DNA of 16,720 nt. Origin: a virus. Its lineage: Duplodnaviria; Heunggongvirae; Uroviricota; Caudoviricetes. Positions within the stretch are counted from its first letter, which is position 1, and the number at the start of each line of letters is the position of its first letter. The notes below the pieces were generated by a model that worked only from the letters and a program-made list of their open reading frames with translations, had not been told where the DNA came from and did no database searches. The stretch lies in the IMG/VR virus record IMGVR_UViG_2695420596_000011; one strand, 5' to 3'. Below, piece by piece: positions 12,047 to 13,221 of this stretch. The position numbers and the translations under genes were made by a program.

Positions 12047-12562
12047 ATGGCGTTAACACACCGCGAACTCTGTCAGATTGCGTATAAGTTCCTTAAGCGC
12101 AACGGGTTCAAGGTTTGTTTTCATGACCGCTTTATAGCTGTAACCAGTACCGGAGAACAGCCAGATGCTATGGGATTCAGAAATTCAGCATCATGCCTGA
12201 TAGAGGCGAAGTGTTCTCGTGCTGACTTGTTGGCAGATAGAAAAAAGCGTTTTCGTAAAAATCCATCTCTTGGAATGGGCGACTGGCGATTCTTTATTAG
12301 TGAGCCGGGAATTATTTCAGTTGAGGATTTACCACCTGGCTGGGGATTACTTCACGTTGTTAACGGAAGAGTACGGAAAGTGCATGGGTGGCCCAAGGGT
12401 AATTGCTGTTGGGGTAATCCTGACGATAAGCCATTTACTGGAAATAAGCAGGTTGAATGCGATTACATGTTATCTGCATTAAGGCGCATGGAGTTGAGAG
12501 GGCACCTTAATGAAATATATGACGGTGTAATTGTTAATAAGAAAGAAGGAAACGCGGCATGA
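12047..12562 (+). CDS. Hypothetical protein with PD-(D/E)xK nuclease-like motifs (171 aa)
   Basis: GGAGAG Shine-Dalgarno then ATG at 12047. Motif pattern ...GEQPDAMGF...(13 aa)...CLIEAKCS... resembles the PD...ExK signature of restriction-endonuclease-fold/VRR-NUC-like nucleases. Not a lambda gene as far as I recall. Confidence 0.5.
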   Translation: MALTHRELCQIAYKFLKRNGFKVCFHDRFIAVTSTGEQPDAMGFRNSASCLIEAKCSRADLLADRKKRFRKNPSLGMGDWRFFISEPGIISVEDLPPGWGLLHVVNGRVRKVHGWPKGNCCWGNPDDKPFTGNKQVECDYMLSALRRMELRGHLNEIYDGVIVNKKEGNAA

Positions 12563-13221
12563 CCACTATTACCAAAGAGCGACTGCTGACAATCAAGCAG
12601 TGGCGCGAAACATACGGACCTGGTAGCAACGTTGTACTGCCAGCAGAAGAAGCGGAAGAACTGGCACGAATTGCACTGGCATCACTGGAAGCAGAGCCAG
12701 TTGCTTATATTTTCAAACATCCGGCCGGAAAATTATTCTGGGCTTTGACGGATGAAAGCAATAAAGATCAATCGGACGTTATTCCTGTTTATGCCGCCCC
12801 TCCAGTACCAGTAGTACCTGCTGCATTACCTGAGAACGACGATGAGGACGGGCATGACATTGATTATCTTGATCCATCTGAAGTTTACGCGCTTGGGCGA
12901 ACAGCTGGCTGGAACGCCTGCCGCGCCGCCATGCTTCAGGGTAAATCCGAACAACCACAAAACGCACAACAAAATATTCCGGAAAATATTCCCGGTGGCA
13001 ACTCTCCGGTAACTCCGGATGGTTGGATAAGCTGTAGTGAGCGAATTCCCGCTCAAGACGATTGGGTTTTAATTTATTCAAAGCACGGCGAGTATATGGC
13101 AGGACAGGTACAAGGGGAATACGTGGAGTTGAGCGACGGCACTTTATCGTGGTTAGGGAACGCCTTGTACTGGATGCTGCTACCAGAACCGCCGCAGGGA
13201 GTGAATGATGAATTGGCCTGA
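12559..13221 (+). CDS. Phage protein with C-terminal DUF551-like domain (220 aa)
   Basis: ATGA-coupled to the upstream gene. C-terminal segment WISCSERIPAQDDWVLIYSKHGEYMAGQ...WMLLPEPP resembles the DUF551 pattern common in enterobacterial prophage early regions. Central Pro/Ala-rich linker. Confidence 0.6.
   Translation: MTTITKERLLTIKQWRETYGPGSNVVLPAEEAEELARIALASLEAEPVAYIFKHPAGKLFWALTDESNKDQSDVIPVYAAPPVPVVPAALPENDDEDGHDIDYLDPSEVYALGRTAGWNACRAAMLQGKSEQPQNAQQNIPENIPGGNSPVTPDGWISCSERIPAQDDWVLIYSKHGEYMAGQVQGEYVELSDGTLSWLGNALYWMLLPEPPQGVNDELA

Follow-up and report, generated by a model that had tools for sequence, protein, structure and literature searches.

The DNA analysed here, referred to as the window, is a stretch of 16,720 nucleotides from a Caudoviricetes virus (IMG/VR record IMGVR_UViG_2695420596_000011). 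Two adjacent genes on its plus strand, encoding proteins of 171 and 220 amino acids, were studied. The original prediction had assigned them to the exo-xis accessory region. Reading of the sequence confirmed both open reading frames (ORFs) and their position in the early-left operon, downstream of gam, bet, and exo (9859-10539) and upstream of xis (14107-14325). Neither gene was thought to belong to canonical lambda, and the published lambda map agrees, since it has only ea8.5 and orf55 between ea22 and xis (PMC8614690). The features of the locus are as follows.

11491..12045, plus strand: upstream gene for an acidic Ead/Ea22-like protein of 184 aa, pI 4.83 (Pfam PF13935, 80.1 bits against a cut-off of 27).
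12036..12040, plus strand: Shine-Dalgarno sequence AGGAG, 6 nt 5' of the nuclease ATG (sequence reading).
12047..12562, plus strand: nuclease ORF, ATG at 12047 and stop at 12560-12562; a basic protein of 171 aa, pI 9.26, predicted to be an MmcB-like PD-(D/E)xK endonuclease.
12047..12385, plus strand: nuclease core, residues 1-113 (secondary structure of the predicted model; the portion kept in distant homologues).
12155..12211, plus strand: putative catalytic codons E37 (12155-12157), D40 (12164-12166), E53 (12203-12205), and K55 (12209-12211), from conservation and the alignment with 3dnx and MmcB.
12218..12289, plus strand: family signature R58-x-D60-x3-D64-x2-K67-x2-R70 ... G76-M-G78-x2-R81, 3' of the ExK codons (conservation; 3dnx alignment).
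12386..12559, plus strand: C-terminal helical region, residues 114-171, with a helix at 134-150 and residues N133, E137, R146, and R147; this region differs among subfamilies.
12559..12562, plus strand: ATGA overlap of the nuclease stop and the downstream start (sequence); of 80 related viral loci, 79 have this -4 overlap as well.
12559..13221, plus strand: downstream gene for an acidic mosaic DUF551 protein of 220 aa, pI 4.24 (Pfam DUF551).
12559..12693, plus strand: first ~45 aa of the downstream protein (MTTITKERLL...), an N-terminal module that travels together with the nuclease gene.
13021..13197, plus strand: DUF551 domain, residues 155-213, a small beta-strand domain (Pfam PF04448).

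The nuclease ATG is located 1 nt past the TGA stop (12043-12045) of the Ead/Ea22-like gene. The start of this upstream gene is read as GTG at 11491; PGAP, on identical DNA, starts it at 11539. Inside the exo-xis block of the window, neither plus-strand promoter-like sites nor strong terminators were found. A defence gene expressed in the lysogen was considered as a candidate and rejected, because the nuclease gene has no such promoter-like site and belongs to the pL operon.

The 171-aa protein contains P39-D40 and I52-E53-A54-K55. This motif had been described as PD...(13 aa)...IEAK. The motif is present, but the figure of 13 holds only for the spacing from D40 to E53 (13 positions); PD and IEAK themselves are separated by 11 residues. 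A PD...ExK string is frequent by chance alone, and the motif was judged real because E37, D40, E53, and K55 are conserved. The AF2 model, obtained from an alignment of 49 family sequences, has a pLDDT of 92.2 and a pTM of 0.86. Its topology is alpha-beta-beta-beta-alpha-beta, which is the restriction-endonuclease core and the fold of the PD-(D/E)xK superfamily. The modelled core consists of a helix (5-18), strands (23-26, 41-45, and 48-54), helices (58-65 and 68-71), and further strands (80-85, 100-105, and 108-113). D40 is located directly before strand 41-45, E53 lies inside strand 48-54, and K55 just past it. The superfamily pattern, with an acidic residue at the start of beta2 (D40) and (D/E)xK on beta3 (E53-x-K55), was thus found in the model.

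The fold search matched several type II restriction enzymes, including SdaI, NgoMIV, PaqCI, and FokI. The closest structural neighbour in the structure comparison was 3dnx, although the Foldseek search against the PDB was discordant: it gave weak matches (best E=0.013) and did not return 3dnx. Nearly all of these matches were PD-(D/E)xK nucleases. Among the viral proteins of BFVD, several structural matches are named "MmcB family DNA repair protein". The nuclease-like core expected by the original prediction is therefore seen in the AF2 model, with E37, D40, E53, and K55 as putative catalytic residues. Structure prediction, fold search, profile comparison, and conservation all bear out the PD-(D/E)xK nuclease fold, about which little doubt is left.

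The family alignment of 49 sequences extends down to 29% identity and includes 205-aa proteins of the Ackermannviridae. H5, E37, D40, E53, K55, R58, D60, D64, K67, R70, G76, G78, R81, and W99-G-L are invariant in it. Conservation was also determined in the best 147 cluster representatives, which are mutually less than 50% identical. E37, D40, E53, and K55 were kept in 143-145 of these 147; D60, D64, K67, R70, G78, and R81 in 146-147; G76 in 140 and R58 in 137. Because the catalytic residues and the signature are kept across such distant representatives, an active enzyme is predicted, and the 171-aa protein is likely to be catalytically competent.

The window protein is a remote homologue of the MmcB-like or DUF1052 proteins (PF06319, COG5321), which include SPO1766 of Ruegeria pomeroyi (3dnx) and MmcB of Caulobacter crescentus. 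The 3dnx structure is the one given for DUF1052/PF06319 (PMC3424549). The profile of the 49 sequences matched the 3dnx sequence with E=8.9e-5, and D40, ExK, and SRADFxAD were aligned. The signature region from R58 to R81 matches SRADFQAD of 3dnx, which corresponds to SRADFxAD in the MmcB-like proteins. Comparison of the family alignment with the MmcB-family protein of S. meliloti (Sinorhizobium) by hhalign gave a probability of 89.9% and E=1.7e-6 over 80 columns; this comparison protein is a bona fide PF06319 member (E=1.6e-79). The putative catalytic residues align with the D and ExK of both 3dnx and the S. meliloti MmcB.

The formal Pfam test gave a different result. At the PF06319 gathering threshold of 22 bits the window protein was not recovered, nor was any match seen at E<=1. 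Three of the 49 family members matched weakly, and the best (P0160; 21.6 bits, E=1.9e-4) was below the 22-bit cut-off. The term sister branch is used here, rather than PF06319 member, because this test failed. As judged from its sequence, the 171-aa protein is a divergent sister branch of the MmcB-like nucleases, outside PF06319 proper. The two branches also differ in other respects. MmcB-like proteins are chromosomal and mostly alphaproteobacterial (PMC3424549); whereas the phage branch is found on mobile elements (phages, prophages, and plasmids) of many bacteria. The phage branch has the extra invariant H5, G76-M-G78-x-x-R81, and W99-G-L, and a different C-terminal region. Caulobacter MmcB is described as an SOS-induced PD-(D/E)XK endonuclease which protects against mitomycin C and cisplatin (PMC9578287); whereas the phage gene is located in the pL operon. 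Very probably, the product of this small early gene of an E. coli lambda-like prophage is an enzyme that cuts DNA and is remotely related to MmcB, the repair nuclease of bacteria.

The likeness to other nucleases is less specific. The motif had been called reminiscent of VRR-NUC (PF08774) and of the archaeal Holliday-junction resolvases Hjc/Hje (PF01870). This holds at the level of the fold, but membership in either Pfam family does not. For VRR-NUC, neither a Pfam match nor a close structural match of the window protein was obtained. For PF01870 (threshold 21.1 bits), the window protein had no match, and 11 of the 49 relatives matched below threshold (best E=0.018). The lambda nin and Red functions (Exo, Bet, Gam, NinB/Orf, NinG/Rap, and RusA) share the delayed-early expression class and the same neighbourhoods with the nuclease; however, neither sequence kinship nor close structural kinship to it was detected, and the gene is absent from lambda. 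Lambda Exo is likewise a PD-(D/E)xK enzyme. A sole phage Holliday-junction resolvase was also considered and rejected, since RusA is encoded as well in a related prophage that has this gene.

With a limit of E<=1e-3, an exhaustive profile search recovered 3,299 clusters (50% identity); with E<=1e-10, it recovered 2,432. In E. coli, a gene at least 95% identical is present in 931 of 5,426 complete genomes (17%), with 250 copies on plasmids. It is frequent in Stx1- and Stx2-converting phages and is also found on phage-like plasmids. Searches with the single 171-aa sequence against Pfam, NCBIfam, PADLOC, and the PDB gave nothing or noise. In PHROGs the protein falls in families 9263 and 631, both annotated as "unknown function", and it has a faint match to a "DNA repair protein" PHROG. 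In the literature search, no paper on the nuclease gene was found, and the exo-xis papers do not mention a nuclease. The protein belongs to what is in effect an unnamed subfamily of a known enzyme type, a phage and mobile-element branch for which Pfam and NCBIfam have no model. A small PD-(D/E)xK nuclease in a phage early operon is unsurprising to specialists, and the present one extends the phage toolkit in a plausible but rather unremarkable way. Its assignment as MmcB-like would give the exo-xis region, about which little is understood, a first predicted enzyme and four residues as targets for mutation.

The C-terminal DUF551 domain that had been proposed for the 220-aa protein was recovered by Pfam (PF04448; E=7.5e-9, 36.8 bits where the gathering threshold is 22), and the match covers the whole profile, positions 1-68 of 68. 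DUF551 is described as a portable domain of unknown function (PMC10834534). The AF2 model of this protein is poor (mean pLDDT 46.7), with C-terminal strands at 169-207 that have a pLDDT of 54-78. The PDB sequence search returned noise. The 220-aa protein, an acidic protein of the exo-xis region, has the same portable C-terminal domain as other lambdoid DUF551 proteins, such as YfdS of CPS-53 and the V2 variant of Ea22; however, the modules at the N-terminus and in the middle differ and have been extensively shuffled. Alignment showed that the DUF551 proteins are a patchwork of shuffled modules.

The coupling between the two genes was examined in 80 near-identical IMG/VR copies, all of which encode 171 aa. 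A downstream ORF with the ATGA overlap is present in 79 of them. These ORFs encode 65 distinct proteins of 50-468 aa, and the DUF551-type WMPLPEPP ending is found in only 39 of the 79. In every locus, the ORF upstream terminates with ...KGE or a closely similar sequence, and in all loci except one this end is 1 nt away from the nuclease start codon. The ORF belongs either to an Ea22-like tail or to a 62-aa protein, both with the ...KGE ending. A DNA block at about 12000-12700, which begins about 30-50 nt 5' of the nuclease gene and takes in roughly 140 nt of the gene that follows, is common to 61-80 of the 80 loci, and the homology fragments beyond it. Because the shared DNA stops about 140 nt into the next gene, the nuclease travels with the first ~45 residues of the downstream protein, and not with DUF551 as such. 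The proposed coupling of a nuclease to a DUF551 protein thus stands for the overlap in the window, but the pairing is local and mosaic.

More distant relatives have other neighbours. Orthologues at 64-77% identity in Cronobacter, Morganella, and Serratia are not followed by the DUF551 protein. The Cronobacter gene is located after Erf/SSB and before unrelated proteins of 178 or 205 aa; the Morganella prophage gene is flanked by NinB and NinG; and the Serratia gene is part of the nin region, with P on its upstream side and Dam and Q on its downstream side. In Det7 (Ackermannviridae), a 205-aa homologue directly precedes a T4-type primase. The homologue of Vibrio phage vB_VpS_C2 has two helicase genes on one side and a primase on the other. 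In Acinetobacter phage HFM1, a helicase comes before the homologue, and a VRR-NUC gene and thymidylate synthase come after it. On a contig with PIF1-helicase and DNA-ligase genes, probably from a lytic phage, it is among small early genes downstream of the PIF1 helicase. The recurrence of helicase, primase, NinB, and NinG beside relatives in unrelated phages suggests a general accessory role in phage DNA metabolism.

Immediate neighbours were also surveyed at 63 diverse viral loci. Most of the 108 neighbours had no Pfam match; those annotated include DNA methyltransferases (9), NinB (3), replication protein O (3), Tad2-like proteins (3), RusA, NinG, GPA, and others. Clustering of the neighbours by sequence was uninformative (175 clusters for 214 proteins). 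The contexts of the most distant relatives (P0148, P0160, P0156, and P0149) were heterogeneous and had no pattern. Such uninformative contexts, together with the failure of the window protein on the Pfam MmcB-like model, count against the reading preferred below, a DNA endonuclease that aids phage DNA replication, recombination, or repair. A related prophage which carries the nuclease gene also has RusA, NinB, and Red. The nuclease is therefore no obvious substitute for a missing function, and no recombination step is obviously left without an enzyme, which also counts against this reading.

An endonuclease is the preferred reading because of the intact catalytic constellation, the basic surface, the homology to MmcB, and the recurring recombination and replication neighbours. 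The protein may be an active, non-essential, divalent-metal-dependent DNA endonuclease that aids phage DNA replication, recombination, or repair; the chance that this sequence-based reading is correct in full is about even. A role in recombination or repair specifically is given slightly less than even chances. Of the three functions that had been suggested for the gene (recombination accessory, host takeover, and anti-defence), recombination accessory fits best with the genomic contexts. D40, E53, and K55, with E37 and an acidic residue at position 27, might form a metal-binding catalytic site on beta2 and beta3. DNA might be held by the basic surface (pI 9.3) and by the following helix, which carries the R58/D60/D64/K67/R70 signature. 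Early transcription from pL, during infection or induction, would include the gene together with the rest of the exo-xis block. Its translation would be coupled to the acidic Ea22-like gene upstream and to the gene that follows, which encodes the acidic mosaic DUF551 protein. The analogy with MmcB and the usual neighbours (Red, Erf/SSB, NinB, NinG, helicase, and primase) suggest that the substrates might be branched, stalled, or damaged DNA. The enzyme would act on intermediates of phage and possibly host DNA.

Alternatively, the enzyme might serve host takeover or anti-defence and not the DNA transactions of the phage itself; early in infection, it would degrade host or competitor DNA, or the nucleic acid of a defence system. 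Genes that modulate the host are plentiful in the early-left accessory regions of lambdoid phages, and the homologue in Vibrio phage Kuja overlaps a DNA methyltransferase gene. The sporadic occurrence in E. coli and the highly mosaic neighbourhood are also in keeping with such a function. The methyltransferases and the Tad2-like (anti-Thoeris) domains of the neighbour survey would suit an anti-restriction or defence role as well as they suit replication or recombination; however, methyltransferases are common in nin regions anyway. Neither the nuclease nor the DUF551 protein matched a PADLOC model at E<=0.1. The primase and helicase adjacency in two unrelated lytic phage groups and the position between NinB and NinG point instead to DNA metabolism, and the nearest characterised relative is a repair nuclease. 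Host takeover or anti-defence is thus considered unlikely.

A broader form of the endonuclease reading, that the large unnamed clade of about 3,300 clusters (50% identity) marks an unrecognised but conserved step of phage DNA replication or repair, is held only as a speculative and rather improbable idea. Such a step might be the cleavage of stalled forks or cross-linked DNA near the helicase and primase. E. coli-type prophages might add to it a 45-aa module which docks exchangeable domains, such as DUF551 or a dATP/dGTP pyrophosphohydrolase, onto the nuclease.

The 45-aa module could also be read as the sign of a functional pair. The acidic downstream protein would then bind the basic nuclease through this N-terminus and either inhibit it or serve as an adaptor, through which variable C-terminal domains (DUF551 or the pyrophosphohydrolase) reach it. 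The nearly universal ATGA overlap, the DNA of the N-terminal module (common to 61-72 of the 80 loci), and the opposite charges (pI 9.26 and 4.24) are consistent with such a pair. Metagenomic proteins include apparent fusions of the nuclease with PF04447 (P0271) and, weakly, with DUF551 (P0255), and downstream of the nuclease gene of E. coli A11 come first a PF04447 protein and next a DUF551 protein. However, the linkage is gone in the orthologues at 64-77% identity and in the lytic phages, and the shared N-terminal segment could be explained as a recombination boundary. The fusions depend on unverified gene calls, and the DUF551 protein is poorly modelled. The probability of a dedicated pair is put low.

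A restriction-like or superinfection-exclusion nuclease is about as improbable as the pair. Paired with a phage DNA methyltransferase, it would cut unmodified incoming or host DNA, and the DNA of the phage itself would be protected. The fold is the one seen in the type II restriction enzymes named above, methyltransferases are the commonest annotated neighbours, and methyltransferase genes are adjacent or nearby in Kuja, the Serratia prophages, and L094. However, neither the window nor the 80 near-identical loci have an adjacent methyltransferase. Under pL control, and with no plus-strand promoter-like site found, the gene would be silent in a lysogen. The protein is also small and has no recognisable specificity domain.

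A selfish, homing-type endonuclease cassette, which would spread by cutting cognate sites in phages that are free of the gene and so yield mosaic flanks, is very improbable. The gene is 95-100% identical across hundreds of prophages with a sporadic distribution, and its flanks switch abruptly at the edges of the shared block, which are about 30-50 nt 5' of the ATG and no more than 140 nt into the gene that follows. In lambdoid phages, it is nevertheless normal for mosaic junctions to coincide with gene boundaries, and known homing-endonuclease models gave no match. In the sampled records of Kuttervirus/Det7-type Ackermannviridae, orthologues at 50-80% identity are stably located beside the primase, like a housekeeping accessory gene. 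Finally, a catalytically inert DNA-binding or regulatory protein with the nuclease fold retained is likewise very improbable: some PD-(D/E)xK-fold proteins are non-enzymatic and the other exo-xis proteins studied so far appear regulatory (PMC8614690), but the canonical catalytic residues are nearly universal over about 150 distant representatives, which is unexpected for an inactivated fold.

The allele of the O157:H7 prophages has a 2-bp deletion at window positions 12202-12203, in codons I52/E53, which cuts the protein to 58 aa. Because the gene is inactivated there, this allele shows that it is dispensable in these prophages, a point that counts against the preferred endonuclease reading. 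The 58-aa fragment is RefSeq WP_001356547.1. In three unrelated genomes, PGAP annotates no more than the first 179 nt of the intact gene, with the label "frameshifted"; phage records annotate the full 171 aa. The pseudogene label on intact copies arises because the RefSeq pipeline uses the truncated O157:H7 allele as its reference. The error is systematic: the gene appears as "hypothetical" or "pseudogene" despite its presence in so many E. coli genomes and Shiga-toxin phages, and the treatment of intact copies as frameshifted should be corrected in RefSeq.

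Structure of the nuclease cassette was compared between the window and 80 near-identical nuclease loci from IMG/VR (L012-L091). The gene located 5' of the nuclease gene is of two unrelated kinds, and both encode the same C-terminus, ...(R/T/I)KGE (window 12021-12046; the same junction in L012-L091). These alternatives are:
Ea22-like variants, ending in ...(R/T/I)KGE
a 62-aa MKNRKAKILLVR... protein, ending in ...(R/T/I)KGE

The distance from the end of the upstream gene to the nuclease ATG is 1 nt, with only one exception among all these loci. The common ending of unrelated genes argues that the conserved cassette extends 30-50 nt into the upstream gene, taking in the Shine-Dalgarno sequence, and that this final part of the upstream gene acts as a recombination boundary. 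On the 3' side, the neighbouring gene (window 12559-13221) is extremely mosaic, with 65 different proteins of 50-468 aa in 79 loci. All of these proteins, including that of the window, share an MxTIT-like N-terminus; their modules are swapped or inserted around a Pro-rich linker and a GWNACRAAML helix. The downstream variant of another E. coli locus (L009) is split into a dATP/dGTP pyrophosphohydrolase protein and a short DUF551 ORF. The first plausible terminators 3' of the nuclease block are two adjacent terminator-like hairpins, located between the DUF4222 gene and a 114-aa ORF:
13586-13607, plus strand, terminator-like hairpin
13618-13637, plus strand, terminator-like hairpin

The longest ORF of the Ea22-like protein in the window runs from GTG 11491 to 12045; at its start, GTGA (11491-11494) overlaps the stop codon of the DksA/TraR-like gene; the PGAP start is at 11539, 48 nt further on. 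Pfam detects only an N-terminal Ead_Ea22 domain. The PADLOC model 'DpdH' (PDLC02890) gives a match with E=1.8e-37 to the C-terminal two-thirds, where residues 72-179 (window 11704-12027) align with profile positions 12-119 of 127. This match may reflect a real link to the Dpd systems, or a prophage protein that was swept into the PADLOC model.

The nuclease allele of E. coli O157:H7 ATCC 43890 (L011 1501-2014) has a 2-bp deletion corresponding to window 12202-12203. The two bases lost are the third of codon I52 and the first of codon E53, and their loss destroys the putative ExK catalytic motif. The 3' reading frame is otherwise nearly unchanged, which suggests that the inactivation is recent. 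About one quarter of the sampled E. coli matches carry this 514-nt form.

The full nuclease ORF is annotated in phage records. The RefSeq/PGAP annotation of three unrelated E. coli genomes calls the first 179 nt of the intact 171-aa gene a 'frameshifted' pseudogene and leaves the remainder without annotation. The segment concerned is:
12047-12225, 'frameshifted' 179-nt segment; identical DNA at L001 12648-12826, L009 3001-3179 and L010 4001-4179

This label on an intact gene probably arose because WP_001356547.1, the truncated 58-aa O157:H7 product, was used as the evidence protein. Several phage records name the nuclease homologues 'adenylosuccinate synthase' or 'putative adenylosuccinate synthase' (those behind H34, H46 and H47; L096 3007-3666). 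The name looks like a propagated misannotation, and there might be confusion with PurZ of the 2-aminoadenine (Z-genome) phages.

At the other end of the window, type III secretion effector genes directly adjoin a shortened replication gene P (593-3547, minus strand):
3065-3547, minus strand, shortened replication gene P (160 aa; 124 of 162 Pfam profile positions covered)
2116-3231, minus strand, NleB/SseK-family glycosyltransferase (E=3.8e-180)
1792-2082, minus strand, NleC-like M85 protease fragment (96 aa)
593-1483, minus strand, OspG/NleH-like kinase

Window 593-3547 has no match in the chicken-isolate prophage. The element resembles a lambdoid prophage of an attaching-effacing E. coli, one that carries effector genes and is probably defective.
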